NCBI RefSeq assembly: GCF_004010195.1
Contig: NC_057746.1
Coordinates: 9,171,412 to 9,235,411, forward strand
Source of the DNA: Chiloscyllium plagiosum
Lineage: Eukaryota
Reading direction: 5' to 3'
Length of the DNA: 64,000 nucleotides
The notes beneath the pieces were generated by a model. It had not been told where the DNA came from and searched no databases. It saw nothing but the letters and a program-made list of their open reading frames with translations. Positions 1,843 through 57,811 of the stretch are shown here, one piece after another. The position numbers and the translations under genes were made by a program. How positions within the stretch are numbered: the first letter of the stretch is position 1; every line of letters begins with the position of its first letter.

Positions 1843-2757
1843 CTATAACACCAGGGTATAGTCCAACAGGTTTATTTGGAAACACTAGCTTTCGGAGCGC
1901 CGCTCCTTCATCAGGTGGTTATGGAGGACATAATTGTAAGACACAGAAAATATAGCAAAAGTTTTCAGTGCGATGTAACTGAAATTATACACAGATGCTC
2001 ACACTCACACTCGCACCCTCTCACCACAGACTTAACCCCTTTACACTCACACACACATATACACACTCTCTCACAGACACACTCAACTGCACAGATACAC
2101 ATATACGTTTGTGGGGGGAATTTGTACTTGCAGAGTTACATTGTGCTTTGCCCAAAAACGCATGAATCCATGTAAGATTCTGTTAATTCATTTTTAGATT
2201 AGAATCAGTCTAAACATTATGGCACAGACAACAGCACACAGAGGTGCTAACACCCAATACATTATTTGGGCTGACACCAATTGTTAAAGTTTACCTGAGA
2301 ATGTAATTTTTTTAAAAAAAGGTTTGTGATTTACATATGAAAGAAGTGAAACTATCGTGGTCATTCTAACAGATGAGAGACTTAAACAATTAGGGTACCT
2401 TCAATGTATAATTTCAGTTACATCACACTGTAACCTTTTGCTACAAATTCTGTGTCTTACAATTTTGTCCTCCACAACCACCTGATGAAGGAGCGTCGCT
2501 CTGACAGCTAGTGCTTTCAATCAAACGATGAGAGACTTAAACAATTAGGGTACCTTCAATGTATAATTTCAGTTACATCACACTGTAACCTTTTGCTACA
2601 AATTCTGTGTCTTACAATTTTGTCCTCCACAATCACCTGATGAAGGAGCGTCGCTCCGACAGCTAGTGCTTTCAATCAAACCTGTTGGACTATAACCTGG
2701 TTTTGTGTGGTTTTTAACTTTGTACACCCCAGTCCAACACCGGCATCTCTGAATCAT
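1843..2757 (+). mobile_element. Penelope-like element 3' end/pLTR with an inverted 5' segment and an internal 156-bp tandem duplication
   Basis: matches 24266-24780 in the opposite orientation; 1843-1990 inverted; 2372-2526 duplicated at 2528-2682. Confidence 0.85.
1886..1914 (-). ncRNA. Minimal hammerhead ribozyme-like core (Penelope pLTR)
   Basis: CAC-CUGAUGA-A-GGAGC(GGC)GCUCC-GAAAGCUA-GUG; stems I and II can form; palindromic AGCU stem III. Confidence 0.65.
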
Positions 2758-3778
2758 TACAAGGATAAGGTAGACATCTGGGTGGGATGCTCTTCAGGGG
2801 GCTAGTGTGGACTCAGTGGGCTGAATGGCTTGCTTCCACCCTGTAGGGATCTAAGATAATTGTAATAATGACTATAGAGACTCCTGTTACAACTTTTACA
2901 TTATGTGAATTAGTTTCATTATATTCTTTATCTTTAAATAATGTTACGGTATCAGTTTAGTTATAACCCATGCAGTATTCCACGGAAACACTCAGCCTTT
3001 GGCCTCAGGAACAACAAGAGGTCTGTCAGTGGATCGCCCTTTCCTTTTACAGACATCTGTTCGATTTTTAAAAAAAGACCTCTCCTGAAAGCTTGTGAAG
3101 TTTACCCCCCACAGCTATTCCTCAAAACATTGAGAGAAACTCTGAGCACAAACCACTTGAATCGACTGGAAAAGTACTCCGTTAATTTACCAGCTTGACT
3201 GCTTTTGATGCATGCTGGGAAACTGGGTTCGATGTCTTAGTGGGACAACACAATCTGTACACAGCAAAGGGTGTCGGGTCTCTGGCCAAACAAACAACAG
3301 ATGCAAACTCGGCCTCATGTAAAAAGCGTAGGTTTTAAAGTAATAACTTCTATTAAGATATAGTTTCGACTGGGTTCAGAACATAAGAACTAGGCAGAGG
3401 AGTAGGCAATTCAGCTTCTCGAACCTGCTCTACTGTTTAATACAATTGTGGCTGATCTCATCTCGTTTTCAACTCTATTTTGCCCTATAACATAAAACAT
3501 TCCACACACAACAGGCCCTTCAGTTCGCTGTCTGAGCTGACTACAAATCCCGTCTACCTGCATGTGGTCTGTACCCCTCTATTCTTTGCCTGTTCACATG
3601 TCTCTTTAAATGCCTGTTAAATGTTGCTATTTTATCTGCTTCTCCCACCTTCCCTGGCAGTGCATTCCAGGCACCAGACCCTCTGAACTATTCAGTCCCC
3701 ATCGCACATTTCCTTGAAAGTTCCCCCCATGTCCCCTAGTATTTGACACTTCCACCCTGGGAAAGAGACACTGACTAT

Positions 3779-4070
3779 GGGCGGCACGGTGGCACAGTGG
3801 TTAGCACTGCTGCCTCACAGCGCCAGAGACCCGGGTTCAATTCCCGCCTCAGGCGACTGTCAGTGTGGAGTTTGCACGTTCTCCCCGTGTCTGTGTGGGT
3901 TTCCTCTGGGTGCTCCGGATTCCTCCCACAGTCCAAAAATGTGCAAGTTAGGTGAATTGGCCATGCTAAATTGCCTGTAGTGTTGGGTGGAGGAATAAAT
4001 GTAGGGGAATGGGTCTGGGTGGGTCGGTGTGGACTTGTTGGGCCGAAGGGCCTGTTTCCACACTGTAAGT
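3779..4070 (+). mobile_element. HE1-type V-SINE
   Basis: GGCGGCACGGTGGCACAGTGGTTAGCACTGCTGCCTCACAGC...GGTTCAATTCC head; GTGGAGTTTGCAC core; CR1-like tail. Confidence 0.9.
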
Positions 4071-4079
4071 AATCGAATG

Positions 4080-4975
4080 TATCCATCCTATTCGTGCCTC
4101 TCATAACCTTATGTAGGTCTATGACCCCTCAGCCTCTCATGCTCAAGTGAAAATCATCCAAGTTTGTCCAGCCACTCCTTATAGCTAATAAGCACCAATT
4201 CAGACAACGTTCAGCTCTGAAGAAGAGTCATCTAGACTCGAAATGTGAGATTGCTCTGTCTCTATGGATGCCTGTCTAACCCGCTGTGATGTCCAGCATT
4301 TGTGTTTGTTTTCAGTACAGGTTCCAGCATCTGCAGTAACTTGCTCCAACATCCTGGTCAGCCTCTTCTGCACCCACTCCTTATCCTTCCTACAGTGTGG
4401 CGAGTAGAACTGCGCACAGTGCTGCAAATGTAGCCTCACCTTAGACATCTGCAACATGACTCACCAACTTTCCTTTTGCTATGCTCCGACCAATGAAGGC
4501 AAGCATGCCACGTTCCTTCTTTATCACCTTATCCACTTGTGTGGACACTTTCAGGAAGCTATGAACTTGGACACCAAGATACCTCTGCATATCAACGCTC
4601 CTAAGGCTGCGGCCATTTACTATATACGTTCCTCCTGCATTTGACCTCCCAAAAAGTATTACCTCACACCTGTCTCGATAAAACTCCATTCGCAGTTTCC
4701 TGCTCAACTTTCCAGCTGATCTTTGTCCTGCTACGTCCTTTGATATCCTTCCTCATCATTCATAACTCCACCAACTTTGTGTTGTCTGCAAACTTACTAC
4801 TCAATCCACTATGTTTTCATCGAAGTCACTTAACTATATATTTCAAATAACAGAGGCCCTACCACGGACCTCCTGTCAGAACACCCTTCATGACTGCCCT
4901 CTGCCTTTAATGGCCAAGCTAATTTTGTATACAAATTGCCAACTCACCATGAATTCCATGCGATTTGATCTTCTA
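4080..4975 (-). mobile_element. Degenerate CR1 LINE ORF2 fragment, interrupted at about 4200-4345 by a hammerhead-bearing terminal repeat
   Basis: ORF track RCEVILFGRSNAGGTYIVNGRSLRSVDMQRYLGVQVH; VRLHLQHCAQFYSPH. Confidence 0.8.
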
Positions 4976-6072: not shown

Positions 6073-6168
6073 GATCAGTTGAAAGCATCTTTGGATTCCA
6101 TGGAGAATGAAAAGGAAAGTAAAAGTGAATTAAAGCGACAACTGCAGAGAGAGATTTCCGAACTGCAT
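6073..6168 (+). CDS. TRIM gene A, coding exon 2 (coiled-coil, 96 bp)
   Basis: ttttag|GATCAG...CTGCAT|gtgagt; 96 bp, phase 0, DQLKASLDSMENEKESKSELKRQLQREISELH; typical 96-bp TRIM exon; paralogous to 28790-28885. Confidence 0.9.
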
Positions 6169-6249: not shown

Positions 6250-6483
6250 CAACTCACCGGATGCCTGGAGAAGGACATCTCTGCACAGTTTTTCAAAATC
6301 CATCAATATCTCGAAGACAAAGAGAAATATTTAATCGAAGAGCTGAGGCAAAAGAAGGAGGAAGATCTGCGACCAATGGAGAAGAGCCTGAAAAGAATCG
6401 AAGAGGAACTAACTTCGCTTGAGGAGGGGATATCGAACCTTTGTGTAGACATCAAACAGCAAGACAATATCTCCTTTCTCAAG
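6250..6483 (+). CDS. TRIM gene A, coding exon 3 (coiled-coil, 234 bp)
   Basis: tgtag|CAACTC...CTCAAG|gtgatc; QLTGCLEKDISAQFFKIHQYLEDKEKYLIEELRQKKEEDLRPMEKSL...DNISFLK; paralogous to 28965-29195. Confidence 0.92.
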
Positions 6484-6599
6484 GTGATCATTTTATATTA
6501 AAAAGACCCTAAGCTGCTGGTGTAATTGCAAACAGAAATTCATGAGATGGTCTGACATTGGTGAACTCAGTGTTGAGTCCAGAGAGCTGAATCAAAAGA

Positions 6600-8100
6600 T
6601 GAAGTGCTGCTTCTCAAGCTAGCGTTGAGCTCCATTACAGCACTGTAGCAGGACCTAGTTCAGAAACATTAGTGTCGTAACAAGTTGGAGAATAAGTGTT
6701 TGGAAGCTCAGGGTCACACGTGTTTTCTGAATGGGGGTGTGCTGCAAAGCCATTACCCTGTGAGTGTTTGGTCTCCCACAGTACAACATCCTGAAACGCA
6801 AATAATGTGTATGAGAGTAAAATAGGAACAAAGCAATCACTGTTTCACTTGAGGGGAGTGTTTGAATCATTGGTTGGTGTAAAGGGAGGATGCGGAAGCT
6901 AAGTGTTGCATCTCCTGCATTTGCAAGGAAAGGTGGTGTTTGGGATGAAAGCGGTTGTTGGTGACGACTGAGGACCAGGGTGTCTTAGAGGGAAAAGTCT
7001 CTTTTGGAGCACTGAAAGGGGGAGGGCAGGGGAAGGTCTGATTAGTGGGGGCACTATGCTGGAGGGTGGCAGGAAAGACAGAGGATGACGATTTAATATG
7101 CGGGCTGGTGAGGTGGAGGGTGATGAGGAGGGAAAATCTATCATGGTGCTAGTTGGGAGAGAGAAGGCGGAGTGCGGAGAGACACACAATGGATCAGCCA
7201 TTATGGAGAGTCCTATCATCCACCATGGTGAAGAATGAGGGGCTAACCTCGGTTGAGGAAAACAACAAGACTTGGTGGTAGCACGATGGCTCAGTGATTA
7301 GCACTGCAGCCTCACAGCACCAGGGGCCTGGGTTCGATTCCAGCTTCAGGCGACTGTCTGTCTGTGTGGAGCTTGCACATTCCCCCGGTGTCTGCATGGA
7401 TTTTCCTCCAAGTACTCCAGTTTCTTCTCAGAATCCAAAGATGTGTGGGTTCGGTGGATTGTTCATGCTAAATTGCCCATAGTGTCCAGGGGTGTGTAGA
7501 TTATTCATGGGAAATGCAGGTTTACAGGGATGGGGGGAAGTGGGCCTGGGTGAGATGTCCTACAGAAGGTCGGTGTGGGTTTGAAGGGCCGAATGGCCAG
7601 TTTCCATACGATAGGGATTCTATGATTCCAGCTGTTCAGAAGCAAAATTCCTAAAGATTGCACTGTCAGGACAGAAGCCACAGACTTGGGAAAAACTTGG
7701 AAGCAGGGTGTGACAACATGCTGCAGATATAACTGAGGGAGTTGATGGGCTTATAATGAAGCAGCTTATCCTCAGAAATGGGGACTGAATAGTTCAGGAA
7801 GGGTCAGAGATGGACTTAAGTGAGGGTGAAACAATGCTGGAAATTGACAAGGAATGTTTTGGAGCGAGTTGTAAAAGGCTTTGATCCAGTCTGGAATGAG
7901 TGAGGGAGGGAAATTTAGGGCTTGAATGATCCACGTTCAACGTATCTCACAAAAGGTCAGCCTTTGCCAGGCCGGTACCCATAGCAACACCTTCCACTGC
8001 AGTGGAAGTGAGTGGAGTTGAAGCTGAGGTAGTTCAGAGTGGGAACAAGCTCAGACAGGAGGAGGATGGTGGTGCTGGATCTGGACTGGTCTAACCTCTG
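6600..8100 (-). mobile_element. Old degenerate Penelope-like element (second family), RT and GIY-YIG remnants; HE1 SINE inserted at 7276-7625
   Basis: minus-strand remnants ELVPTLNYLSFNSTHF (RT), TTFPCKCRRCNT (Cys linker) and an LYxG-like GIY-YIG region. Confidence 0.65.
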
Positions 8101-8124
8101 TTAGAGACACAGAGAGGCTTCACT

Positions 8125-10312: not shown

Positions 10313-10924
10313 ACGAAAACAAAAAATGCTGGCAATCACAGCAGGTCAGGCAGCATCCGTGGACAGTCAGAAAGGTAACGTTTCGAGTCTCAGAATGACA
10401 CTTCACCCACTCGGGGAAGAACCATTATCTAGACTCGAGATGTTAACTTTCTGTCTGTCCACGGATGCTGCCTGACCCGCTGTGATTTCCAGCATCTGCA
10501 GTAATGTTCTCCTGAGGAGACAATCAGGATGGACAATGAATTGTAAAGGGTTCGACGACCATGGTAAAGATGAACTGGTTGCTGTAATCCTTCATTTAAG
10601 CTAAAAGATTGTCTTGCTTTAGTTTTCTTTTTATTCCCCGCTCCCCGAATTTCCTGAAGTGAATGGTATGTTGGGGGTTCAGTCTGATGGTGACCAACCA
10701 TGAGTATCGATCTTTCAAACTTTAAAGTCTTAAACAGCAGAGCAAATCCTATCCGATGTGTTGAGGGCAGGGGTACCTGATGTGGTATCACTGTAGTGTG
10801 TCAGTGAAAGCTCCAATCAGTTCCGTTTGTTTTTTACTAAAATCACTGCTTATTTATTTTTATAATGTACAACCTAAACAGCACCATGTATCTATTAACG
10901 TGATTCTGATTCTTTATCCTGCAG

Positions 10925-11250: not shown

Positions 11251-13029
11251 GTAAGAAACCCCACAGCTTTGTGTCCACTCTCTGGAAAGTTTCTGTTCTG
11301 TTATTGAGTGGAGGAGGTCACTGTTGGCAGTATCCCCTGGGATCTCTCACTCAAGGGCCATACTTTGGGTGGGACCTGAGGGGAAGTGATACAACAATGT
11401 TCGGGATCAGAACAGCGTTTGTTATGGTATTCACATCCAGACGTTTAACAGAATTGGAAGTGGTCAGAAATCACGAGTCCTTTCCTAGGACACGGCAGCT
11501 CCCACGTTGGCAGGGGGCAGAAATGGAGTCGGTTCCAGATCCACAAATGTGTTTACATTGGCTGCTCGACATTTTAATTCTCCACAGTGTCACTTTTCAG
11601 ACCAGGTAAGGGCGAGTGTACACCTTACATTGGGATAACAGGGTAAGGTGTCATGTTGGACTCCTGGGGCACTTTTCGAAGGAGTAAAAACTGCTGGGAT
11701 TGAGGTAGAGTAGCCATCCTTTGTGAGAAGTGAGCTACGACATTGGGAGAGGTCAGGTACCATCTTGAGCTGTTAAATCTAGACAAGCTTGTCACAAAAT
11801 AGTGCATTGAGAATTCCTACCTGTCAAAGGACTGTCATCGTTGTCAAAAACTGTCATGGCATCAAAGGGACCAGTCTCAGCATTTAAAGCTCCCGATATA
11901 TAAATGAGTGAAAATAAATCTGGAAAGTTTCTATCTCACTCTGTTGACATAAGCCTGACAATTTCCTCTCTTGTCGAAGAGTGTATGCTGGAAAACTACA
12001 ACCGGCCAGGCAGCATCTGGTGAGCAGGAGAGTTGACATTTCGAGCATTAGCTCTTCAACAGGAGCGTTGGAAACATGGAGTCTCCTGCACCTTAGATGC
12101 TACCTGACAGGCTGTGCTTTTCCAGCACCACACTCTTCGACTCTGATCTCCAGCATCTGCAGTCCTCACAATCTCCTAATTTCCTGTCTTGGGTGAGTGC
12201 TGGAAAGCTATGCGAATTCAGGTTATTACGGTAGGGTTCACTTGAGGTAGACAGCGGCAATTGCTTTTAGATTTTTTTTGATGTGGGACTGTGAATTCCA
12301 ACACTTGAATGCAACATTTCGTGTCATAAGACTGTATCTTGCTCTTGAAATGTGCATATAATAATTGTGCTTTTATGACTGAGTATTTTTCTTAGTATAT
12401 GAAGTCCGTAAAACATTTACATTAGAACAATAGAACTTCAACTTTCATTATCTATGCTTGGGTCTGGAGGTAAGCCATGGTTGATGCTCAGTGTGTTGGC
12501 ATGGGAGGTCAAAGAGCATAGGGTAGTAACTGGGTGAATGGGTTGGTATGTAATGGCATTATGTTGGCATAGGTGCCACCCAGCATCCAGTCTGTCTGAT
12601 CTAGAAAGTGACCACAAGTAGGCCATCACTAACAGAGGAAATGTTGGCAAACTACTGCAGGTGTGGCTACATCTGAAAAAATTCATATTGGACCTGAAGC
12701 ATTCACTCTGTTTCTCTCTTCACAGATGAGTTTCATCCAGTATTCTGTGAGTCTATTACCGCCTTACCTGTGGTCACCTTGTTGATCAGACAGACTGAAT
12801 GCTGAGTGGAAAAACTGCAGATCAAGGATAACTGTCACCTCTCCCTCCCCTCGCAGGCTGTTCAGAGGAAGTGGTGTTTCACATGGAACACTGTCATTCA
12901 TTTATTGACATCCATATTTATTCCAGGCAGTTGCTGTCCTGTCACCTTACAGTGATGCACCACTGAAAGCCAGTGTTTCTGCACATGCACAGTCCCTGCA
13001 CCATTAATGGTCAAGTTTGGACAATAAAC

Positions 13030-13775: not shown

Positions 13776-13838
13776 ACTATATTTTCCTAACCATTTTGGT
13801 GTAGATTACTTAACGTGATGTATTTGCTGTTTTTGCAG

Positions 13839-14380: not shown

Positions 14381-17203
14381 TAGATTCCTAAACTGGTGGC
14401 TCTGAGTAATTTTCCCTCATTGCTCTCCCCACACACAATGAGAGAGAAAGGATTGGCGGATGGAGGGGAGGACATAAAATGAAATGTGACCTCAGCCCTC
14501 AGTGTATGTCAGACATATGTCTGGTGGTGATTTATGGGTTTATCTGTGTTTCTACCTTGTGGTACCTTAAAAACCTGATTGAAACTCAGTGTAGTCTGCC
14601 AGGGTGTTAGGTGGGAAAACCAGGAGTCAGGTGGGAACAGTTGGATCAGGCGGGAAGTGTTTTGCCTGTTCTGCTTTTCCTGCCAGGAGGTTCAGGAACT
14701 TAACCCAAGGAATCAGCCTGCATCTTCAGAAAGGGGAATGATTTTGGGAATCCGAATCTTTCTTTTGTGGTGTTTGAACAATTGTAAGTCATGCATCACT
14801 TGTGGGTGTTGTTCAGTTCTGATGTAATATTTTCCTAATATACAATACATTTTTTGACACATGTATGAAGACCCAGTTTGTTGTTGAAATTTATTTGCAA
14901 AAGGAACTTTCATGTTAAAACCTAACTGCTAAGTGGCTTTCCTATAGTTTTAGTTTTGGATGCCCCATCAATCAAATCACCCGTAATTATAAGAACAATT
15001 ATCAAACGATGTGCACCAGAGGCAGTACAACAATAACAAAAGGGGAGGGAAAGAGGGAGGGAAATGAATTAAGAAAGGCTTGGAGGGGGAGCATTGCACT
15101 CCAACCCCTGCAGTGCTCACCTCTGTCCAAATACCTTAAGGCTGCTGGGAGACACTGCCTTCTTCCTCTCTGCAATGACCTGGGCATGAACATAGCCCCA
15201 GAAGAGGGGCAAGGCAGCTGGGCATCACTAGCTCCCCCCTCCCAGCCTGACATCTGGATCTATGGGGTGGCTATGTTCTTGGATTTTTAATAATTGGATT
15301 GAAATCAGCAGAAACCCGTGAGCGAGCTCAGGCCACTTTTGCTGTGTCGAACCCCCATGTAAGTCACTTTAAAAAGTTCAAGTGATGCGTAAGGATCATG
15401 CTTGGTTTGTGCCAAAACATTAACTTGCCTTCTCCTTCAGCGCCAGCTAACACGATGTGCTTTTGATATAGCAGGCGCTGTATTTGAAGGTAAATTAAGA
15501 ATGGCAATAACCTATTTATGGCGTCTTCATTGTGGATGGTCTTTAACAACAGCCTAATATTTCTAATCCTCCAACTCCAACCCCATTGCTCACTGCGGTG
15601 AAAGTGCCTGCATTTGGCACTTTTTATTGATAGTCAGACTAAGGTTGGCAATCCATCATATAAAGTCGTAGAGTCATACAGATATACAGCACAGAATCAG
15701 ACCCTTCGGTCCAATTTGTCCATGCCGACCAGATATCCCAACCCAATCTAGTCCCATTTGCCAGCACCCGGCCCACATCCCGAAAAGGGGAAGCCTCTAT
15801 CCTGCCACGAAAAAAGAATAAAAGTCACTTCACGCTGACTCTGCTCTCAATGAGATGAACATGGGAAGTGTCTGCCTCTGAAAGGAGGGTTTTCCAGTTA
15901 ATCGCCTCTCGGACGTCAGTCTGCATCTTTAACACATTTCTGAAGGATTGACTAAGAGACCCGATAGCTTGCTCTTCCATTATTTTTGAGATTTGTTCAT
16001 TTAGTTCATCAAACGGGTGACTTGGTGGCGTTACAAAACCAAAGCAGCGCACAATATTGATTGGTCCCGTGTAGATGTTCAAATTAATCACCAGAACTTT
16101 AAAATTCAGTGGCTCGCTCACGGCCCAGTTCTGTTCTCAATAACAACGTTTGGGGAGACTATGTCTTGGGGAGAGAGGGTCTCCCGGGTTGAATCACTGA
16201 ACAAGCTGCCAAGATCAATGGAGAGGCTATCTTCCACCCACAGCACCATGCTTATTCCTGAAGCAGACTTTTACAATGTCTCCTCTCAGCTCCCACAGAA
16301 ATGAGCTGGGAGTGGGTGAAATGAAGCCTGAAAGTTCAAACAAACCCCTTGCTGAAAATTGGTCAAAAAATGGAGATTTGGAGGAATGTGGGAACTCTTG
16401 AGACATGTAAGGTTGTAGGGCATGTCTGATAACGTGTTGCAAACCAGTTGACAGGTAACCATAGAAAGTCCAATGCATTCCCGTATTCCCCCCCCCCCCG
16501 CCCTCACAAAATCTAATGCTCCATCTATACCACTGCTATGACCTCACACCACTCCCACCAGCCCCTCCATTGCTCTTCCATAACCACTATTGTGGTGATA
16601 TGGTGCTGGAAAAGCACAGCCCCGGTCAGGCCGCAACTGAGGAGCAGGAGAGTTGAGATTTCGAGCATAAACTCTTCAATTATCCAGCTCTTCAACTCTC
16701 CTGCTCCTCGGATGTTGCCTGACTGGCTGTGTTTTTCCAGCACCATACCTTAGGACTCTGATCTCCGGCATTTGCAGTCCTCACTTTCTCCTACTCTTCT
16801 GGTGATCACTCTTTGTTAGATTAACGTCCTGTGGCTCGGGTGACTGACCTTCAGCAACTACAACCATCTTCCCTTTGTGATAGGTATGACTTCCAACAGT
16901 TTTCCCGATTCCACTTGATTTATATGTGGCCAGAGTTCTTTGATCCGCAGGTCAGGAAAATACTGCCTTGATGCCACGCACAGTCAAAATTTGCACAGTG
17001 ACTGACCCTGTGATATTGGTACTCAGAAATTTTAAGTCCTCTTTGTGACCGAGGTTTGTCTGTGTCTGTAACCAGAGGTCGATAAGCCAAATTAATGACT
17101 TGTGGACATCTCTGTCTAATGTCTTTGAGCTGTATGATTGACAAGCAAGGAAACCAAAGCTGATCAATGATGTTGCTCGGTGCCACTGTCCCTTTTGAGA
17201 GCA

Positions 17204-17252: not shown

Positions 17253-17260
17253 TACAAGCA

Positions 17261-17683: not shown

Positions 17684-19289
17684 GTAAGAGGCGAGAGAGA
17701 GAGAGAGCGCGCCTTCAGCTTGTGACTGGGATTGCAGGAGTGAAGGGCTGCAGTCACTTGTTGCCTGAAGACTCAGGATCCCCGGATCTCTGTTTGCAAT
17801 CAGACCGCTGGATTTTTCTCTCTCTCTCTCTCTCCAACCCGGCATTGGGGGTTCCTTGCTGTTTAGCTGAGAGCCCGTTCAAAGCAGTGCCCAGAATCTG
17901 ATTGCTCAGTGTGAGGGACACGGTCAGATCCTGTGTGGTTTGTGGGTGTCTGACTCTGGGCTGGGTCATTTTGATTAATGTCCTTTGTTTACCTTTGATC
18001 ACCATTTTTTCTACGGTGCAGCAAGAGGCCCTTCGGTCGCTTTCTTCTGGCTCCCCCCCCCCCTCCCAAAAAACCCCTTGGTTATTGTGAATAAACATCC
18101 AGTGGCCCAATTCAATTACCCCTCCAACACTGGCTACTTTATGACTCCCCTCCCATGTCCTTCTACCTTCAGTGAATGATTCTTCAGCACAGGATTGCCA
18201 AAAAGCTCTCTAAAAGTTCAGGGTCACCAAACTGGTTGGAAATATTGGAGGACTGAAAATCTGTTTCATTGGAATATTTACGTTAAATCCTGCGATGATA
18301 TGGACAACACGGCTTCATTGCCTTGTCTTTTCCCATAATCTGACATTTCATTCCCCCTCAGACAATGATCTGCAAACCTTTTTAGGTTTGTTCACAGGAA
18401 GTGGGCATCGCTCGCTAGGCCAGCATTCATTGCCCATCCCTAATTGCCCAGAGGGCAGTTGAGAGTTCAACCACATTGCTGAGATTCTGGAGTCACATGT
18501 AGGTCAGACCTGGTGAGGATGGCAGATTTCCTTCCCCCGAGGATATTAGTAAACCAGATGGGTTTATCTTCCACCAATCAACAATGGTCTTCAGTCGATT
18601 CTAAATTCCAGTTTATTTTATTGAATACAAATTCCACATCTACTGGGGTAGGATTCAGAACCTGGGTCCCCGAGAACAGAATTTCTCAATCAATAGGAGA
18701 AAGTGAGGAGTGCAGATGCTGAAGATCAGAGTCAAAATGTGTGGCGCTGGAAAAGCACAGCAGGTCAGGCAGCATCCGAGGAGCAGGAGAGTCCAGACTC
18801 ACAGCAACGAGCTTGACTCTGAACCACCCTCTGGGCACTGGAAGGTTGGCAGTAAATGCTGGCTTGGCCAGCGTTGCTCCCACGCCACACTCTGTGAATG
18901 AATAATGAAAACTGAAAGGTGTTTTCATGTACCCTCAAGTCCCTCCTGGAGAATCATGGCTGAATATGATATTTCTCCTTGTTTTTCTGACCAAAATGCT
19001 TTGCTTTACTCTTCTCAACATTAAATTCCTTCTGCCCTTGCCCACGGTTTCCATTTTGTCTTCATCCTCCTGAAATTTCTGAGCACAACCCCTGACAATT
19101 CACGATAACACCAAAGTTGTGAAATGGTTGCCTGTATGTCTAATGTTTTAATACAGCTTAAGATAAACAGTGATCCTCATGCTGAACCCGAGGGAAATGC
19201 ACCGTAAACTGTACCAGGTCAAAAGCAGCCACTCACCACAATGTTCTTGCACACCTCGTGCGTTGAAATGCAGAATACCTGGAGATCGG

Positions 19290-22407: not shown

Positions 22408-23505
22408 TGGTGATGTACTGGACAGCGAAGAAGGTTACCTCCGAGTACAATGGGATCTTGACCAGACGGGCCAATGGGCTGAGGAGTGGCAGATGGAGAT
22501 TTATTTAGATAAATGTGAGGTGCTGCATTTTGGGAAAGCAAATCTTAGCAGGACTTATACACTTAATGGTAAGGTCCAAGGGAGTGTTGCTGGACAAAGA
22601 GACCTTGGAGTATAGGTTCATAGCTCCTTGAAAGTAGACAGGATAGTGAAGAAGGTGTTTGGTATGCTTTTCTTTATTGGTTAGTGTATTGAGTACAGGA
22701 ATTGGGAGGTCATGTTGCAGCTGTACAGGACATTGGTTAGGCCACTGTTGGAATATTGCGTGCAATTCTGGTCTCCTTCCTATCTGAAGGATGTTGTGAA
22801 ACTTGAAAGAGTTCAGCAAAGATTTACAAGGATATTGCCAGGGTTGGAGGATTTGAGCTACAGGGAGAGGCTGAATAGGCTGGGGCTATTTTCCCTGGAG
22901 CGTTGGAGGCTGGGGGGTGACCTTATAAAAGTTTATAAAATCATGATGGGGATAGATAGGGTAAATAGACAAAGTCTTTTCCCTGGGGTGGGGGAAGTTC
23001 AGACTAGAGGGCATAGGTTTAGGGTGAGAGGGGAAAGATATAAAAGTGAACTAAGGGGCAACTTGTTCACGCAGAGGGTGGTACGTGTATGGAATGAGCT
23101 GCCAAAGGAAGTGATGGACACTGGTACAATTGCAGCATTTAAAAGGCATCTGGATGAGTACATCAGTAAGAAGGGTTTAGAGGGATATGGGTCAAGAGTG
23201 TGGTGCTGGAAAAGCACAGCAGGTCAGGCAGCATCCAACGAGCAGGAGAATTGCTATTTTGGTGTGAGGGGCTCTTGCCTGAAACATCGATTTTCCTGCT
23301 CTTCAGGTGCTGCCTGACCTGCTGTGCTTTTCCAGCACCACACTCTCGACTCTGATCTCTAGCATCTACAGTCCTTGTTTTATCCTTCGAGGGATATGGG
23401 CCAAGTGCTGGCAAATGGGACGAGGTTCAGGTTACGATATCTGGTCAGCATGGACGAGTTGGACCGAAGGGTCTGTTTCTGTGCTGTACATCTCCATGAC
23501 TCTGA
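22408..23505 (+). mobile_element. CR1 LINE 3' portion
   Basis: ORF 22712-23317 LYRTLVRPLLEYCVQFWSP...TRGHRFRVRG; interrupted at about 23197-23388. Confidence 0.92.
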
Positions 23506-24265: not shown

Positions 24266-27080
24266 TGATTTGGGGGTGCCAGTGTTGGACTAGGGTGTAC
24301 AAAGTTAAAAATCACACAATACCAGGTTATAGTCCAACAGGTTTTATTGGAAGCACATTAGCTTTCGGAGCGCCGCTCCTTCATCAGGTGGTTGGGGAGG
24401 ACACAATTGTAGGGCACAGAATTTATAGCAAAAATTTACAGTGTGATGTAACTGAAATTATACATTGAAAAATACTTTGGTTGTCTGTTGAGTCTTTCAT
24501 CTGTTCGAATACCATGATAGTTTCACTTCTTTCATGTGTAAATCACAAACCCTTTTTTTAAAAAGGTGCATTCTCAGTTTAACTGTAACAATGGTGATGG
24601 TTAGACAATATGTTGAAGGTGTTAGCCCCCTGTGTTCTCTGTCTGTACCATGATGTTTAGATTGATTCTAATCTAAGGAGTGAGATAACAGAGTTTTACA
24701 TGAATTCATGCAGTTTTTGAGCTAAGTACAATGTAACTCTGCAAGTACAAATTCACCACACAAAATATATGTGTACATATGTGTGTGTTGTGTGTGTGTG
24801 TCTGTCTGTCTGCGTTGGGGGTTCTGAGTGTGAGAGAGAGTGTGTGTGTGTGTAGTGAGTGTAGAGTGTCTTATATCTGTGAGGGGGTGCGTGTGGGAGT
24901 GTGTGTGTGTGTGTCTGGGGTGGAGGGGTGGTACATGTGTGTGAGCGTGGGAGTGTGTGTGTCTGTAAGGGTGTGTGTGTGTCCGTGTATATGTGTGTCC
25001 GTGTGTATGTGTATGTATAGCAGTGTGTGTGTGTAGGAGTGTGTATAGTGCAATGGTGGTCACCTGTAGTGTGACATGAACCCAAAGTCCCGGTTGAGGC
25101 CCTCCCTATGGGTGTGGAACTTAGCTATCAGCCTCTGCTCGGCCACTTTTCTCTGCTGCCTGTCCCGAAGTCCACCTTGGAGGACGGCCACCCGAAGGTC
25201 CAAGGCTGAATGTCCTGGATCACTGAAGTGTTCCCCAACTGGGAGGGAACCCTCCTGTCTGTTGATTGTTGTGCGGTGCCCATTCATCCGTTGTCGTAGC
25301 CTTTGCTCGGTTTCCCCAATGTACCATGTCTCCGGGCATCCCTGCCTGCAACGTATAAGATAGACACCATTGGCTGAGTCACATGAGTACCCACCATGTA
25401 CACGGTGGGAGGTGTCCCCACGCGTAATGGTGGTATCCATGTCCACACTCTGACACGTCTTGCAGCATCTACCTTGACAGGGTTGTATGGAGTTGTCCTG
25501 ACAGCCGGGCAACTTGCTACAAACAATGATCTGTTTGAGGTTTGGCGGTTGTTTAAAGGCAAGTAGTGGAAGTGTGGGGTAGATCTTGGTGAGGTGGTCA
25601 TCCTCATTGATAATGTGTTGCAGGTCACGAAGAACATGGCGTAATCTTTCAGCTCCTGGGAAACACTGAACAACGAAGGGTACCCTGTCGGTTGCAGCAC
25701 AGTATCCGTGTCCTGAGGAGGTCATTACGGTTCTTCTCTGTGGCACGTCGGAACTGGCAGTCGATGAGTTGAGCATCGTACCCTGTTCTTGTGAGGGAAT
25801 CCCTGAGTACATCCAGATGTCTGTCATGTTCCTCCTCATCTGAGCAGATCCAGTGTATGCGTAGGGCGTGTCCATAGGGGATAGCTGTTTTAATATGTTT
25901 TGGGTGGAAGCTGGAGAAGTGTAGCATTGTGAGGTTGTCTGTGGGTTTGCGGTAGAATGTGGTGCTGAGGTCTCCATCCTTGATGGAGATGCATGTGTCC
26001 AAGAATGAGACAGATATTCGAGAGTAGTTCATGGTGAGTTTGATGGTGGGATGAAACTTGTTGATGTCACTGTGTAGTTTTGAGTGACTCCTTACCATGG
26101 GTCCAGAGGAAGAAAATGTCGTCAATGTACCTGGTGTACAATGTTGGTTGGAGGTCCTGCGTAGGGAAGAAGTCTTGTTCGAACCTATGCATGAAGATGT
26201 TGGCATATTGGGGTGAAAATTTGGTCCCCATGACTGTTCCGTGTGTCTGGATGAAGAACTGGTTGTCAAAGGTGAAGACGTTGTGATCGAGGATAAAGCG
26301 GATGAGTTGTAGGACGGTGTTTGGAGATTGGCAGTTGTTGGTGTTGAGTACTGAGGCTGTTGCTATTGTGCGATCATTGTGGGGGATGCTGGTGCAGAGA
26401 GCGGAAACGTCCATTGATGAGAAATGTTCCTGGTTCGACTGGTCTGTGGGTGCTGAGTTTCTGTAGGCAATCCGTGGTGTCGCGACAGAAGCTGGGGATT
26501 CCCTGTACAATAGGTTTCACGATGCCTTCCACATTGCCGGAGAGATTCTCACACAGGGTCCATTGCCCGACACGATGGGACATCCTGGTGTGTTGGCTTT
26601 GTGTACCTTTGGAAGGCAGTAGAAGTCGCCTACATGAGAAGTACGTGGGATGAGGACGTGTAGGGAACTCTGAAGGACTAGATCCAAAGTTCTGATCAAT
26701 GTGTTTAATTTACGGGTGTGTTCTTCGGTCAGATCAGCTGGTAGTTGCCTGTAGTGTTCCTGGTTGTTCAGTTATCGGTACACTTCCTTGCAGTAGTCTG
26801 TTCTATTCTGAATGACAATGGCTCCTCCTTTATCTGCTGGTTTGATGACAATGTTGTGATTGGTTTTGAGAGCCTGGATGGCATTGCATTGTGAACGGGT
26901 GATGTTTTGCTCTACCTTGTGGGTATGGCTGATGAATCTGGCATTTATATATTTCCTGACGGTTTGAGTATACATGTCAAGCCCAGGGCAGCGGCCCTCC
27001 GGTGAAGTCCACGTTGACACCTTCTTTGGTCACTCCTCTACAGATCCCTGTGATGACTGTTCCAGTTCATTAGTGGGCTC
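24266..27080 (-). mobile_element. Penelope-like retroelement, 5'-truncated, with frameshifted RT and GIY-YIG endonuclease and a 3' pLTR
   Basis: IVIKPADKGGAIV, FYCLPKVHK, MDVSALCTSIPH, GTVMGTKFSPQYANIFM, YTRYIDDIF, VYLIRCRQGCPETWYIGETEQRLRQRMNGHR; TSD-like ATGGAATACTGG (24254) / ATGAAATACTGG (27081). Confidence 0.95.
24359..24387 (-). ncRNA. Minimal hammerhead ribozyme-like core in the pLTR of the Penelope element
   Basis: CUGAUGA-A-GGAGC(GGC)GCUCC-GAAAGCUA. Confidence 0.65.
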
Positions 27081-27298
27081 ATGAAATACTGGATTGCCTG
27101 GATGGGTGTAACTCCAACAGCACTTGATTAGCAGCACACCCACCATTCTCAGCTTTCACTGGCTTCACCATTATGTACAACACTAACAGTGTGTAAGCCC
27201 CTTCCAAACCCACAATCACTTCCATCTCGTTGGACATGAGTGCCACCTGCAAATTCCCTCCACCCCACAGACCATCTTGACTTGGAAATCTATCATCA

Positions 27299-30221: not shown

Positions 30222-30688
30222 TTGAGTGAGTGAGCCCCGTGAGTGTTAACCCTGGCAGCAGAAATGTGTTTGGATTCACGGGAGTAACGCCCGAGAGCAG
30301 TGATGTGACCGAAAGGATCAATAAATTCTCAATAAAAACATAAAGAACTACAGATACTGTGAATCAGAAACAGAAAATGCTGGTGAAGCTCAGCAGCTCT
30401 GGCAGTGTCTGTGGAGAGAGATTAGAGTTAACATTTCAGGCCAAGTGACCCTTCCTGACAACTCAGTAAATTCTCAATGTGTTCAGTAGCGGAGGAAAAC
30501 CTGTCAAGTGCACTCAGAGTTGGGGCAGGAGATGGAGTAACTGTCACATCATTGAATCAAGTCAGTGAAAATTTCACCCAAAACCCTTCGTAGTTTTCAG
30601 GAATTACTGGGTAATCATTAAGACAACAAAATACAGTTGAAACATCATTGTCTATTTGTTAAAATGCTTCTAATTCTCTCTCCTGCAG

Positions 30689-31319: not shown

Positions 31320-32995
31320 CCACTTGGCCCTTTGACCCAGCTCTTTCTTCCAATAAGATCAGCTTTTAACCTCAGCTCCACGCTCCTGCATGTCTCTGAT
31401 AATCTTGCGTCCCCTTGGTAATCAAGAATCTACCTACTTGTACCTTGGAAATGTTTAACGATTCTGCATCCATTGCCTTTTGTGGAAGGGAATTCCATAG
31501 ACTGTATCCTTTGAGGAAAGAAATGATCCATACTCATACCTGCCTTAAATAGGCGACCCGTTATGATCCTTAATTCTAGATTCTACCACAAGAGAAACAG
31601 ACCCTTCGGTCCAACTCATCCGTGCTGACCAGATATCCAAAATTAATCTCATCCAATTTGCCAGCATTTGGCCCATATCCTTCCAAGCCCTTCCTATTCA
31701 TATACCCATCTAAAATCCTTTTAAATGTTGCAATTGTAAGGCCTCCACCACTTCCTCTGGCAGCTCATTCCACACATTACCCTGTCCATGAAAAGGTTGC
31801 CCCTTTAGTCTCTTTTAAATCTCACCTTAAAGCTACGCTCTCTAGTTTTGGACTCCCCTGTGCTGGGGAAAAGACCTTGGCTTTACACCCTATCCATGCC
31901 TCTCACGTTTTTATAAACTTCTACAAGAGGAATCAGTCTGGTAAACCTTCACTGCACTCCATCCATAACCAGAACATCTTTCCTCAGGTAAGGAGACCAA
32001 AACTGCACACAGTATTCCAGGTGTGGTCTCACCAATGCCCTGTTTAATTGCAGAAAGATATCCCTGCTCCTGTACTCAGATCCTCTCACTCTGAAGGCCA
32101 ACATACTATATGCCTTCTTGACTCCCTGTTGCTCCTGCATGCTTACATTAAGTGACTGGTGTATGAGGACACTCAGGCCTCTCTTAATTTATAACCATTC
32201 AGCTAATAATCCATCTTCCCATTTCCCAAAGTGGATAACCTCACATTTATCCAACTTCATATTGCATCAGCAATGTGTTTGCTCACTCACCCAACCTGTC
32301 CAAATCACGGTTCGGCATCTCCGCATCCATCTCGCAGCCTTGTGTCATCTGCAAATCTGGGGCTATAACATTTAGTTTGCTCATATAAATCATTAATTTA
32401 TATTGTGAATAGCTAGAGCCCTGACACTGATCCCTGCTGTATCCCACAATTCGTGCCTGCCATTCGGAAAAAGACCTGTCTCTTTCTACATGAAAACTGA
32501 AAGAGCTGTGGACGCTGGAAATCAGAAACAAAAACAGAAACTGCTGGAAAAGCTGAGGAAGCCTCACTCGACCTGAAACGTTAACTCTACACAGATGCTG
32601 CCAGTTGAAACTTTATTGCTGGAACAGCACAGCAGGTTAGGCAGCATCCAGGGAACAGGAGATTCGACGTTTCGGGCACAGGCCCTTCTTCAGGATGCTG
32701 CCAGACCTGCTAAGCTTTTCCAGCAATCTCTGTTTTTGTTCCTGTTTATTTCTACTCTCTGTTCCCTCTTCATTTCAATACACTACCCCAATCCCATGAA
32801 CTTCAATTTTACACACTAGTCTCGTACGTGGGACCTTACCAAAAGCCTTTCAAAAGTCCAAATAAACCACATCCACTGGCTCCCCCTCATCAACTGTATG
32901 AGGTGTGTCCTTGAAGAATTCCAGTAGATTTGTCAAACATGATTTCACTTTTGTAAATCCATGCTGACTCTGTTCAATTCTGCCGCTATTTGCTG
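31320..32995 (-). mobile_element. Stack of minus-strand CR1 fragments
   Basis: ALVRPHLEYCVQFWSPYLRKD; DFxKAFGKVPH; SQHGF remnants. Confidence 0.8.
32666..32693 (-). ncRNA. Minimal hammerhead ribozyme-like core (second terminal-repeat family)
   Basis: CUGAAGA-A-GGGC(CUGU)GCCC-GAAACGUC; palindromic ACGU stem III; GUC cleavage triplet. Confidence 0.6.
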
Positions 32996-33032
32996 AGTAA
33001 AACTTAACATAATGTGTTTTAATTTTCCCTAG

Positions 33033-52777: not shown

Positions 52778-52970
52778 GTTGGTGTCCTCGAAGAGTCCCA
52801 GCAGGCAAAGTCTGGCTGGCCTCTTGCAGGACCATGGGGGCCGAGCTCTGGAAGCGCAGGTGGGTCTTGAAGCCCTGGGCGATGTCCCGTAGCGGGCGCT
52901 GGAAGGGCAGCTTGCGGATCAGCAGCTCGGTGGGGTTCTGGTAGCGGCGGATCTCTGGCAGTCCCACGGT
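52778..52970 (-). pseudogene. Histone H3 pseudogene fragment
   Basis: [52 protein letters not shown], then a frameshift to [10 protein letters not shown]; several substitutions at invariant positions; N-terminal tail and C-terminus absent. Confidence 0.9.
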
Positions 52971-53626
52971 CCTTTCCCCTCCCGGTGAACTTCCGCGCCG
53001 TCTGCTTCGTCCTCGCCCATCCCCACTCTCTCCCATCCCCATCCTCTCNNNNNNNNNNNNNNNNNNNNNNNNNNNNNNNNNNNNNNNNNNNNNNNNNNNN
53101 NNNNNNNNNNNNNNNNNNNNNNNNNNNNNNNNNNNNNNNNNNNNNNNNNNNNNNNNNNNNNNNNNNNNNNNNNNNNNNNNNNNNNNNNNNNNNNNNNNNN
53201 NNNNNNNNNNNNNNNNNNNNNNNNNNNNNNNNNNNNNNNNNNNNNNNNNNNNNNNNNNNNNNNNNNNNNNNNNNNNNNNNNNNNNNNNNNNNNNNNNNNN
53301 NNNNNNNNNNNNNNNNNNNNNNNNNNNNNNNNNNNNNNNNNNNNNNNNNNNNNNNNNNNNNNNNNNNNNNNNNNNNNNNNNNNNNNNNNNNNNNNNNNNN
53401 NNNNNNNNNNNNNNNNNNNNNNNNNNNNNNNNNNNNNNNNNNNNNNNNNNNNNNNNNNNNNNNNNNNNNNNNNNNNNNNNNNNNNNNNNNNNNNNNNNNN
53501 NNNNNNTAACCAACACTTTCCAGACACTATGTGACTGAGGCTAGTGACTGGGCAAAGTGCCTGAACTCGCCTTATCCTGCAATTAACAGTTGATGCTGCT
53601 AGATTAGCAGAGCGCATGATGTGGAG

Positions 53627-55025
53627 GAGGAGGTCTTGGGCTGGGATGAACAAAGTTAAAAATCACACAAGCCCAGGTTCTGGTCCAAGAGGTTTATTTG
53701 GATCACTAGCTTTCAGAGTGCTGCTCCATCATCAGGTTGCTGTGGAGAATAGGACCAAGACACATCATTTATCGTGAAAGATTACAGTGTCATGCAATTG
53801 AAATGATATATTGAACAAACCTGGATTGTTGTTAAGTCTTTCATCATTTAGAATATTTTGATTCATTAATACGTAAATCCCAGAACTTCTTTTAAGTCAC
53901 CTTTTCAAGATAACTTAAGGTTTAATAACAAATGGTGACAACTCAGCTCAGACAATGCAGTAAAGGTGTGAAGTTAGAGTCTGTCTGTATCCTAACCTTT
54001 CCTGAAGAAGGCCTTATGCCCGAAATGTCGATTCTCCTGCTCCTCGGATGCTGCCTGACCTGCTGTGCTTTTCCAGCACCACACTCTCGACTCTGATCTC
54101 CAGCATTTGCGGCCCTCACTTTCTCCCATATATCCCAATTTTGAGTCAGACTGGTTCCAAAGTGGAATTTACAAAATGTTACATATATTGACTGCCTGCA
54201 GATTATGCATTTTGTGATCAAAATAGAATGTATCTGCAACTATAATTCTGCCAATACAAATTCACCCAATCGACTAATATGTGTGTGCACGTCTTTTAGA
54301 GAGACAGCGAGGGTATGTGCGTGTGAGTGGGTGAGTGTGAGTCAAAGTGCGTGTTTGCATGTGTGAAAGCTTGGTGAAAGTGTGTATGTGGATGTGATGG
54401 AGTATAAGCCTGTGAGAGAGTATTGGAGATGTATGTTTGTGTGTATGAGAGAGAGCTTGTGTATGAGAGAGGATCTGCATGACTGTGTGAGGATGTAAGA
54501 GTGTTTGTGTATGTGTGAGCGAGTGTGCATGGTGTAGTGGGGTCACCTGTAGTCCAGGTTGAAGCCATTCCCATGGGTACCGAACTTGGTTTTCAGCCTC
54601 TGCGAGGCCACTCTGAGTTGTTGTATATCCCAAAGTCCTCCTTGGAGGATGTTCACTCGATGATCTGAGGCCAAATTTCCCTGACTGCTGAATTCTGGGA
54701 GGGAACACCCCTGCCTGGTGATTGCTGTGAGGTGTCATCTGTTGTTGTAGCGTCTGCTTGGTCTCACCAATGAGCCAGGCCTCGGGGCATCCTTGCCTGC
54801 AGCGTATGAGGTAGACAGCGCTGGCCGAGACAAAGATTGTGATACAGCCAGACCTGCTGCGTACACGGTGCGTGGTGTCCCCACGTATAATGGTGGTATC
54901 CGTGTCGACACTCTGACATGTGTTGCAGGGTTGCCATGATAGGGCTGTACAGTGTTGTGGTCGATGTTATCCTGCAGGCTGGGCAGTTTGCTGTGAATAA
55001 TGGTCTGTTTAAGGTTTGGCAGTGG
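53627..55025 (-). mobile_element. Penelope-like element 3' fragment (GIY-YIG region and pLTR), with another terminal repeat inserted at about 54000-54127
   Basis: homologous to 24266-25560 (VYLIRCRQGCPEAW-like; CTATAACC/GGAGC hairpin terminus). Confidence 0.85.
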
Positions 55026-56466
55026 GCTAAAGGTGAAAAGTGGGACAGATGCTGGAATTTGAATCCTAAAAATAAATCAGGAATTAGATGTCCTTAAAGG
55101 TTAGGTTTTGAAGTATCATTGTTAAAGGGATTATGATGGTAGTGCGAGTAAATGGGAACTGTTCAATCAGCCATGGCTACATTAAATGGCGGGCTAAATG
55201 GTCTGCTGTCCCTGTGTTCCCTGGGGATGAGAGGTGGTAATCAAAACAGAATCAGGTTTGTGAGATGTTCTGATAACAACGTCGGAAAACGTGAGGACTA
55301 CAGATGCTGGAGAGTCAGAGTTGAAGAGTGTGGCCCTGGAAAAGTACAGCCAGTCAGGCAGCATCCGAGGGGCAGGAGAGTCGACGTTTCAGGCATAAGC
55401 CCTTCATGAGGAAGGGCTTTTCACTTGATTTTGTGCTGGAACTTCAACTGGCCGTTATGTGCAGTGCAGGGGCTACTCCAGCAGAGGGAGGCAGTCTGTG
55501 GAGCTGACTGTGACTGGAGCTGACCGTTTCCCAGCATTAAGGAAGATATTCACCCCAGCTGCCTGCACAGTTACAACACGATGGGCAATTTAGAATGGCC
55601 AATTACCCTGACCTGCACATCTTTGGACTGTGGGAGGAAACCGGAGCACCTGGAAGAAACCACGCAGACACAGAGAGAATGTGCAAACTACACAGACAGT
55701 CGCTCTTGGCTGGAATTGAACCTGGGTCCCTGGTGTTGTGAGGCAGCAGTGCTAACCACTGAGCCACCATGTTATCCTCATGGGTCTAGGTAGGATGCTG
55801 TTCGGAGGGTTGGTGTAGACCTGTTGGGCTGAATGGCCTGTTCCCACACTGTGGAGATATATCGCCGTTCCTTCACTGTCACTGGGTCAAACTCCTGGAA
55901 TTCCCTCCCCACAGCAGGTAGGCAGCAGTGATTCAAGAAGGCAGCTCACCACCATCTTCAGAAGGGGGCAACTAGGGACAGGCAGTGACTGCTGGGCCCA
56001 GACAGCGATGCCCAATTCCCATGAGAGAATAAAATAAAATTGAAACTAAGAGGTATCAAATTTAAAAGAGTAATGAGGAGGAAGTGTTTTGAATTGATTA
56101 GCTCAGAGGGTGGTGGATGCCAGGACATTGAGTAAAGTTAAGGAGGAGATAGACATATTTTTAATTAGTGATGGGTTGAAGGGATATGGAGAGTTAGAAG
56201 GATGGTGGGGTTGAAGCTGAGATGAGATTAACTTTCGTCATATCAAATGGTGGAGCAGGCTCAAGGGGTTCAACTGGTCAGTTCCTCTCCCACCTCTGAG
56301 TGAGAAGGAAAGTGGGGTTGAAGCTGAGATGAGATTAACTTTCGTCATATTAAATGGTGGAGCAGGCTCAAGGGGTTCAATTGGTCAGTTCCTCTCCCAC
56401 CTCTTGAGTTCCGACATTGATATGTAAGTGAGATGCTTCGGCAATAGCAGTAGAAGGTGACATGGA

Positions 56467-56507
<41 letters not shown>

Positions 56508-56510
<3 letters not shown>

Positions 56511-56882
56511 GTGGCACGGTTACTCAGTGGTTAGCACCAATGCCTCACCGTGCTAGTGACCCTGGTTCAATCCCAGCCTCAAGCACTGTCTGTGTGGAGT
56601 TTGCACATTCTCCCCGTGTCTGCGTGGGTTTCCTCCGGGTGCTCTGGTTTCCTCCCACAGTCCAAAGATGTGCAGGTCAGGTGGATTGGCCACAGTAACT
56701 TGCCCCATAGTGTCCTGGGATGTGCAGGTTAGGGTGGAATGGCCCACGTGCAGGCTAGGTGCATTATCCATGAGGAGGGCTGGGATAGGGTCAAGGATGG
56801 GTGTGGGTGGTATGCCCTTTGGGATGGTTGGTGTGGACCTGTTGGGCCCAATGGCCTGTTTCCACACTTGTGTGGATTCTAT
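56508..56882 (+). mobile_element. HE1-type V-SINE preceded by a (GA)n microsatellite
   Basis: typical head, core and tail; (GA)n at 56470-56506. Confidence 0.88.
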
Positions 56883-57811
56883 CTCTTCCCTAAATGCACA
56901 AGGATTAATCCTGGTCTGCCCCATTCCCGGGGACACTGCAAGTTGCAAGCAGAGATCTGTTTAAGCAACAGACCCAGGGATACATAGGTGTTCCAAAAGG
57001 CACGATGAATTCTCTATCATGTGACCTCTCAGTGTTGTATACATGAGCCTGTGCAACAGAGAAAATGGGTCAAATGCTGACAAAAGGGAGTTGGACAGCA
57101 TGGAGGAGTTGGACTGAAGGGTCTGTTTCCATGCTGTACATCTCTGAGACTCGATGACCTCATTCTCATTACATCTTGTTCTGAATCACTGGGGTAGCTG
57201 GTGGTTAAGCCTCATTGTCCCCAGTGTCATTAGGAACATTAACAATTTCAAGGAGTATTCCCCAGTTTCCCTGAATTTCTGACAGAAATCACAGACCAGG
57301 TTTCTGCATTGAACCAGAATCAATATTTATTACAAGAAATTAGTCTCTAACTTCAGGTAACCATGATGTGGAGGAGCCGGTGTTGGACTGGGGTAGACTA
57401 AGTTAAAAACCACACAACACTTGGTTATAGTCCAACAAGTTTATCTGGAAACACTAGCTTACTTCCCAATAAGCCTTTTGGACTATAACCTGGTATTGTG
57501 CAATTTTTAACGGAAGAAGGGCTAATGCCCGAAACGTCGATTCTCCTGTTCCCTAGATGCTGCCTGACCTGCTGCGCTTTTCCAGCAACACATTTCCATC
57601 TCTGCAATTTTTAACTTCAGGTAATCAGTTAGAAACCACCGGCATATAATTACCAACTTCTAATCCCCTTCGAAACTCCCCTGTCACACACATACACCCA
57701 CAGACAAATGACAAAGGTAAAGCATATTATGATCATAGGAAAGACAGGAAAGACTGGAAAGACAGTTCAATAGTATTCATTCCCAGATTCTGTTGTCGAA
57801 ATGATCTCATA

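Follow-up and report, generated by a model that had tools for sequence, protein, structure and literature searches.

Hammerhead motifs of Penelope-like elements in Chiloscyllium plagiosum, and leader-sized copies with a preferred 5′ edge

Metazoan Penelope-like elements (PLEs) carry minimal hammerhead ribozymes in their pseudo-long terminal repeats (pLTRs), and an extra nucleotide, a G10.1-C11.1 pair and a palindrome are described as emergent features of these motifs (PMC4209133). As far as the consulted parts of the sources go, the hammerhead class, fold-back copies and solo copies are already in print (PMC4209133, PMC8557442, PMC3846280, bioRxiv 10.64898/2026.07.22.740005, PMC2377424, PMC6765202). 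A CX2-5CxxC linker is found between the reverse transcriptase (RT) and the endonuclease in Neptune elements, with a zinc finger-like linker in Nematis also (PMC8557442). In the Poseidon element of Anolis carolinensis, RT initiation is internal, unprocessed RNA is a substrate and cleavage is protein-assisted (PMC11167929). The PLE transposition cycle and the role of the hammerhead are described as unclear (PMC8557442, PMC11167929). Here we analyse dispersed short repeats with hammerhead motifs, termed families A, B and C, in a stretch of 64,000 nt from Chiloscyllium plagiosum (NC_057746.1, positions 9,171,412 to 9,235,411, termed the window) and in the 3.56 Gb assembly from which it comes.

An earlier note, made from the window sequence alone, had proposed that the repeats derive from Penelope elements. 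Linkage to PLE open reading frames (ORFs) bears this out: families A, B and C are the pLTR ends of PLEs that encode an RT and a GIY-YIG endonuclease, and there is very little doubt that the repeats are PLE hammerheads. In the window, the family A motif at 24359-24387 follows, at a distance of 675 bases, the stop codon of a 5′-truncated, frameshifted relic at 24266..27082 (−), antisense in a TRIM intron, which retains the RT (YIDD), a CX4CxxC linker, the GIY-YIG endonuclease (stop at 25060), a CA-rich 3′ untranslated region (UTR), the pLTR and the tail. An older family A relic at 53616..55052 (−) consists of an endonuclease remnant (54552-55052), a 3′ UTR and a pLTR, and the motif core at 53707-53735 lies behind the endonuclease remnant. 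A strongly decayed RT/endonuclease remnant of a further PLE, split by another repeat, is present in a TRIM intron at 6595-8100 (−), with no hammerhead seen behind it. Pfam gave no family for the three PLE fragments of the window, which were identified by tblastn to natural long copies.

Elsewhere in the genome, the family A motif is found downstream of the endonuclease at 11 of 12 loci, one of which is the window, and at 17 of 20 loci in a second set that has one locus in common with the first. Two loci (L107 and L109) have the motif on both sides of the ORF, and the family A tail runs into the ATG of the ORF at +123 in all four loci examined (positions are counted from C3 of the hammerhead core). 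The B-type motif lies behind the endonuclease at 13/15 loci (one being the query), and L160 has a 749-aa open RT and GIY-YIG frame; L160 and L161 match RVT_1 above the cutoff, with the GIY-YIG match (E 3e-4) falling just short of it. The window copy at 32603-32695 is identical in 92 of 93 positions to the pLTR behind this 749-aa ORF. Endonuclease remnants are found upstream of family C in 4 of 30 loci, including L181, where the RT and endonuclease lie directly upstream. A fourth family, D, which has a U3-A8 core, follows its endonuclease in 11/15 loci and is present in 964 exact copies. The proteins of families A and B share only 31% identity; both display YIDD and YIGET motifs. A CX4CxxC linker is found in the ORFs of A, B and D and, judged by sequence, appears to be a Neptune-like trait. 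Family D loci L142-L154 (e.g., G000:C16:10687869-10691255) also have a TATA-like box at −36, which is strong, and a downstream ATG immediately preceded by a polypyrimidine-AG.

The family sequence is present at all 12 places listed in the earlier note, with coordinates right to within one base. The full pattern, defined as the core, a stem II of at least 4 bp, the palindrome and UH, is kept in four of these copies, at 1886-1914 (−), 24359-24387 (−), 53707-53735 (−) and 32666-32693 (−), and the other eight each have defects. The reported GAAA to GACA change in two family A copies is confirmed as A14C at 2482 and 2637. The copy at 54002 has a stem II one base short and has lost the palindrome, that at 57511 displays U4G and is 5′-truncated, and those at 12035 and 55383 carry A6U and G5C, respectively. 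The copy at 4217 has lost the palindrome and its cut site reads UG; the one at 10377 has no CUGA and is truncated within a fold-back. Fifty Markov controls of the window contained a mean of 0.06 full-pattern matches and at most one, compared with the four in the window itself, where family fragments amount to 27 rows versus the 12 originally listed.

Genome-wide, the exact pattern is found 15,860 times for family A and 61,357 times for family B, and family C has 13 strict and 511 CpG-tolerant matches; reversed controls gave 0 for all three. A descriptor scan blind to family, run on 774 kb of unselected genome, detected 57 motifs versus 0-2 in each of five Markov controls. The repeats are dense in the genome, as the earlier note held. 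Exactly one extra nucleotide follows CUGANGA in 56 of the 57 motifs (A in 49); it is real, as noted earlier, but it is usual for the class and not the oddity it had been taken for. The 10.1-11.1 pair is G-C in 43 motifs and G-U in 11, and the 15.2-16.2 palindrome is CG or GC in 36, with CA or TG, the products of CpG decay, in 15 more. The unselected sample (e.g., blocks L054-L063 and L074-L083) also contains at least four more hammerhead groups, not assigned to ORFs in this analysis, in which stems I and II are of different sequence and the core reads CUGAGGA or CUGAAGA.

Between families the core is fixed while stem II changes and yet pairs, and the covariation pointed out in the earlier note thus holds. 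Stem I is short, 3-4 bp, with pairs that differ by family. In 10 motif groups, which are related and not independent, the groups' own stem I arms form a mean of 2.7-3.75 of 4 pairs, compared with a mean of 2.2 for swapped arms. Conservation of the core above that of the flanks had been suggested as a check, and it gave a divided answer, in that the core is fixed across families but is no better kept than the flank within family B. In 65 B copies, non-CpG core positions are conserved in 621/646 cases (96.1%) and positions 45-61 in 1043/1102 (94.6%); G12 is kept in 75%, decaying as a CpG, and 23 of the 65 cores are intact. The core decays like its flanks inside B, as is expected of dead copies, and the comparison within B is hence not diagnostic. 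Selection acted in active PLE lineages, not on inserted copies. An Rfam scan of the window at E<=5 gave no hammerhead family, only weak matches to mir-761 and DLG2-AS1, the former overlapping the family B fold-back at 16601-16787. By sequence, the architecture of the families is that of a minimal type-I hammerhead, with cleavage a prediction.

The short copies were collected by means of sequences 3′ of the cut site, such that detection is independent of the core; 25 of 73 family A copies were kept for the analysis of ends. The 3′ ends are bimodal. In family B they fall at +84-95 in 41/109 copies and at +121-130 in 46/109, and in family A at +84-93 in 9/25 and +119-129 in 14/25, the second A position coinciding with the ATG of the ORF in 4/4 loci. 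This bimodality is the PLE "tail" (PMC8557442, PMC11167929), which in Anolis Poseidon is tied to two internal RT starts (PMC11167929).

The 5′ ends show a preferred edge. Of 109 B copies, 54 end at −10..+5, none at −34..−11 and 27 further upstream (p=1.9e-10), and among non-inverted B copies 30/65 are at the −10..+5 edge (p=1.2e-6). The corresponding family A count is 13/20 at −14..+5 versus 0/7 (p=0.006). When ends were placed in the empty zone −34..−11 in a leave-one-out simulation, 66 of 71 were recovered. Among young B loci, 21/30 end at −10..−1. A pile-up of 5′ ends at the hammerhead cut site was considered and rejected, with 0/65 non-inverted B copies at +26..+30; overall 5/109 B ends are found there, all inverted, and one window copy also starts there.

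In the 774 kb sample, 67 of 189 fragments are arranged head-to-head and 6 in tandem. Fold-back junctions differ between insertions (among the 50 sites listed of 962), as do arm lengths, and a master mini-element with a 45-bp fold-back spacing was rejected for this reason. Direct repeats of at least 8 nt surround 7/11 young solo B copies, compared with 0/110 control pairs, and 7/30 unselected solo B copies, compared with 5/870 controls. Two B insertions 3.7 kb apart (L283 and L284, G000:C1:3888000-3892200) have the same flanks and target duplication, which points to a local segmental duplication. Three B copies about 175 bp apart at L100 and two C-like copies 128 bp apart at L048 stand in tandem and are candidate retrozyme seeds.

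The edge lies close behind promoter-like sequence. A TATA-like box is found at −33 to −41 in ORF-side copies of A (8/9), C (8/8) and D (8/8), with a weaker word in B; these stand about 30 nt before an A at −8 in family A or at −4 in B, C and D. TATA and initiator (Inr)-like words are also present in rotifer PLE pLTRs (PMC3846280). In family A and in the B subfamilies tested, the element base before the predicted start is C. Where copies lack that C, the first 100 matches listed, counted by eye, have G75/A10/T15 in family A (of 1,927 matches in total) and G59/A28/T13 in family B (of 9,014 in total); one base further in, the control position reads G10/C59/T31 (first 100 listed, by eye, of 9,313 in total). 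The expected G fraction is 0.26-0.29. The G surplus thus occupies position −9 in family A and −5 in family B, where the surrounding sequences are unrelated, and the next base inward does not show it. The G-copies are not joined to the element body in 18/19 A and 20/20 B cases; one further A locus, of 20 inspected, had T and is outside the G count. Of these 38 unjoined copies, 24 are fold-backs; the G falls within a target duplication in 8, and 6 have no duplication. Most simply, the junction G would reflect a cDNA to which one extra C was added where a fixed 5′ end of the RNA was reached, and a G excess in place of the element C would fit reverse transcription of the cap. An untemplated 5′ G has been read as cap copying in L1 and SVA (PMC4859970).

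We consider it probable that the solo and fold-back copies arose as run-off cDNAs, made from the first 90-130 letters of PLE RNA, a 5′ leader that was capped and had not been cleaved. A pLTR promoter of TATA/initiator type would set the start of transcription 4-8 nt ahead of the core, with the first bases of the RNA forming stem I. Synthesis by the element's RT would begin internally, either about 85-95 or about 121-130 nt downstream, the second site corresponding in family A to the ATG of the ORF. The enzyme would then copy through the uncut hammerhead to the RNA 5′ end and add a C opposite the cap, and the cDNA would either join target DNA by microhomology, giving a target-site duplication, or fold back on a second copy. 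In the active element, the hammerhead itself may need to dimerise or to be assisted by the element's protein in order to work, and cleavage there would remove the cap and the first 32-37 nt or would trim tandem transcripts. Inserted copies, including those of the window, are likely inert. On a wider proposition we are evenly divided: that PLE mRNA starts with the hammerhead, stem I being made of the first capped nucleotides; that the ribozyme is a self-decapping switch and not only a trimmer of tandems; and that the hundreds of thousands of stubs are run-off cDNAs which record start and cap at single-base resolution, only uncut RNA being copied.

Several observations weigh against this reading. 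The G lies inside the target duplication in 8/8 G-copies that have one, and could thus be chosen by the target and not derived from a cap; a clearly untemplated G was seen by eye in only a few fold-back junctions. Small samples of families C and D, with G in 4/9 and 1/4 non-templated bases, give no clear excess. At the control position, fold-back microhomology raises the share of the base C. The TATA-like word of family B is weak and came from hand-chosen variants, and Penelope of D. virilis has a TATA-less internal promoter (PMC2377424). Seven of 10 young A loci extend far upstream, so that ordinary truncation also contributes. An RNA run of 1,159 reads, from a 3′-biased single-cell library in which 93% run on into unlike sequence, showed no pile-up of starts or ends; a second run yielded no reads. 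Nearest-neighbour energies give a double hammerhead forced as a dimer no advantage over two monomers (−18.3 versus −20.2 and −10.7 versus −13.8 kcal/mol), which agrees with the low or protein-assisted activity reported for minimal hammerheads (PMC4209133, PMC11167929).

The earlier note took the solo repeats for a separate non-autonomous family. This was not upheld: solo copies match ORF-linked pLTRs, two young B copies being 92/93 and 88/92 identical to them, they have no common head, and fold-back junctions vary. A head or internal sequence of their own, distinct from that of the autonomous partner as is the case with SINEs, was not found in the solo copies. A related explanation, which we hold to be unlikely, is that ORF-less truncated copies that retain a promoter make short capped leader RNAs, which the PLE protein copies in trans. 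Stub copy number is indeed very high, with 189 fragments in 774 kb, such sources would yield identical ends and the G, and pLTR sequences suffice for trans-mobilisation in rotifers (PMC3846280). However no stub-specific sequence or subfamily accompanies the close match to ORF-linked pLTRs, no upstream head is shared, and the centres of fold-backs vary. Moreover the stubs start downstream of the TATA-like box, and would thus not be transcribed again from it.

Slightly less probable still is that cDNA synthesis began in the 3′ pLTR and was truncated on the 5′ side in the ordinary way, the front edge of the hammerhead being a hot spot for microhomology or for RT stops, with a G that stems from the target preference of the endonuclease or terminal transferase activity. 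The G within the target duplications would suit this, as would an ATT word at −4..−2 in B, ATT being preferred by the Anolis enzyme (PMC11167929), and the many copies that reach upstream (27/109 in B). Against it stand the TATA-like box that families A, C and D have some 30 nt ahead of the edge, and a G excess at different positions of A and B in unrelated contexts that vanishes one base further in.

The window contains two TRIM genes on the plus strand. In the first, the RING/B-box exon lies outside the window, some 1.1 kb ahead of its start, and coiled-coil exons are found at 6073-6168 and 6250-6483 and a PRY-SPRY at 13814-14377; the second spans 17246 to 33574 (+). Their introns contain 8 of the 12 copies originally listed, and ribozymes co-opted by the host to act on TRIM pre-mRNA might be envisaged. 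This is very improbable, and the relevance to TRIM introns implied in the earlier note is not supported: the three intact intronic cores are all antisense to the genes, the sense-strand copies are all broken, and B cores decay as described above, few being intact and G12 changing as a CpG. Chance resemblance to a hammerhead, for which the absence of an Rfam hammerhead match in the window and the marginal energy of the active fold might speak, can be dismissed in view of the 57 motifs against 0-2 in controls, the extra nucleotide in all but one, the compensated stems I and II across families and the U3-A8 core covariation in one family.

The remaining copies of the window are as follows. In intron 1 of the first TRIM gene, a family A pLTR fragment at 1845..1991 (−), antisense and with the intact motif 1886-1914, forms the inverted 5′ arm of a single insertion unit that covers about 1845-2757. 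The other part, at 1987..2757 (+), has family A 3′ UTR, pLTR and tail with a 155-bp tandem duplication (2372-2681), and both its hammerheads, at 2482 and 2637, are the A14C copies. Family C is represented by a solo pLTR/tail at 4210..4352 (+), which keeps core and stem II and has lost the palindrome and cut triplet, and by a head-to-head fold-back pair at 10321..10495 with both arms truncated inside the core. An old family B fold-back pair at 11978..12169 has a minus arm with a compensated GAGC/GCUC stem II and the A6U change. Features absent from the original list include the following: a B fold-back pair at 16601..16787; a B fragment at 18700..18793 (−), which starts at the predicted cut site (+28) and has no core; a B fold-back pair at 23197..23375 with truncated cores; and a pLTR/tail fragment of a further related family at 30332..30453 (−), whose nearest reference is family D (96/119).

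At 32603..32740, a young family B copy (32603-32695, −) with an intact core lies antisense in a TRIM intron and has an inverted partner (32685-32740, +). A solo B copy at 53999..54122 (+), extending from −3 to +124, is inserted into the older family A relic, and another at 55287..55413 (−), from −3 to +125, carries G5C. A family A fold-back pair without a core, at 57359..57511, is followed by a young solo B copy at 57513..57604 (+), from +2 to +94, which is inserted into a family A tail and flanked by 13-bp direct repeats.

Other repeats of the window are a satellite of about 10 kb with a 27/28-bp unit followed by 2 kb of a 25-bp satellite (40088-52050), the units of the latter matching at 99%, and a 43-bp array at 38526-39292. 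LINE-like RT fragments, putatively of CR1 type, are found at 9042-9512, 22685-23317 and 42817-43485 (+), with an RVT_1 match for the first. A translated frame at 52919-53330 (−) resembles histone H3 by eye and is presumably a decayed copy.

As a ribozyme find these motifs are ordinary, the class dating from 2014, and the signature at the junction is of greater interest. Should the extra G stem from a copied cap, transcription would be fixed as starting at the base with which stem I begins, the dominance of leader-sized stubs would be explained (roughly 0.87 million fragments, extrapolated from the 189 in 774 kb), and it could be tested directly whether RNA is lost to retrotransposition through cleavage. 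No extra G at the 5′ edge of a pLTR was found in the literature, the coverage of which did not extend to Lunse et al. 2016, to one supplement of PMC4209133 or to those of the bioRxiv report; the consulted portion of PMC4209133 describes neither a fixed 5′ edge nor an extra G.

In motif structure, the repeats resemble the minimal hammerheads of metazoan PLE pLTRs (Cervera & De la Pena 2014, PMC4209133): a type I core with an extra nucleotide between 9 and 10.1, G10.1-C11.1, a palindromic 15.2-16.2, no stable stem III, several families per genome, mostly single motifs, opposite-strand pairs and a U3-A8 variant. They differ in number, with the exact B motifs far exceeding the approximately 9,000 given for Xenopus. 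Non-LTR retrozymes (bioRxiv 10.64898/2026.07.22.740005) are likewise pLTR-related and non-coding, with a type I hammerhead, but form tandem arrays; here copies are head-to-head far more often than in tandem (67/189 versus 6/189), they are not organised as such arrays, and both cores are mutated in the only tandem pair of the window. Endonuclease-positive PLE units (PMC8557442, PMC3846280) share the head-to-head inverted 5′ copies, the optional tail of 30-40 bp, target duplications of about 9-13 bp, TATA and Inr-like pLTR words and the CX2-5CxxC linker as in Neptune, whereas most copies here are only leader-sized. In the rotifer paper, solo pLTRs without duplications are ascribed to recombination or deletion, while the copies here often have duplications. 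A further related system is Poseidon of Anolis carolinensis in vitro (Frangieh et al. 2024, PMC11167929), where two internal RT start sites define the tail and uncleaved RNA is the template, as is proposed here. In Poseidon, however, the ORF starts inside the hammerhead and the tail lies within the ORF, whereas family A has its ATG 123 nt downstream, at the point where the tail ends.

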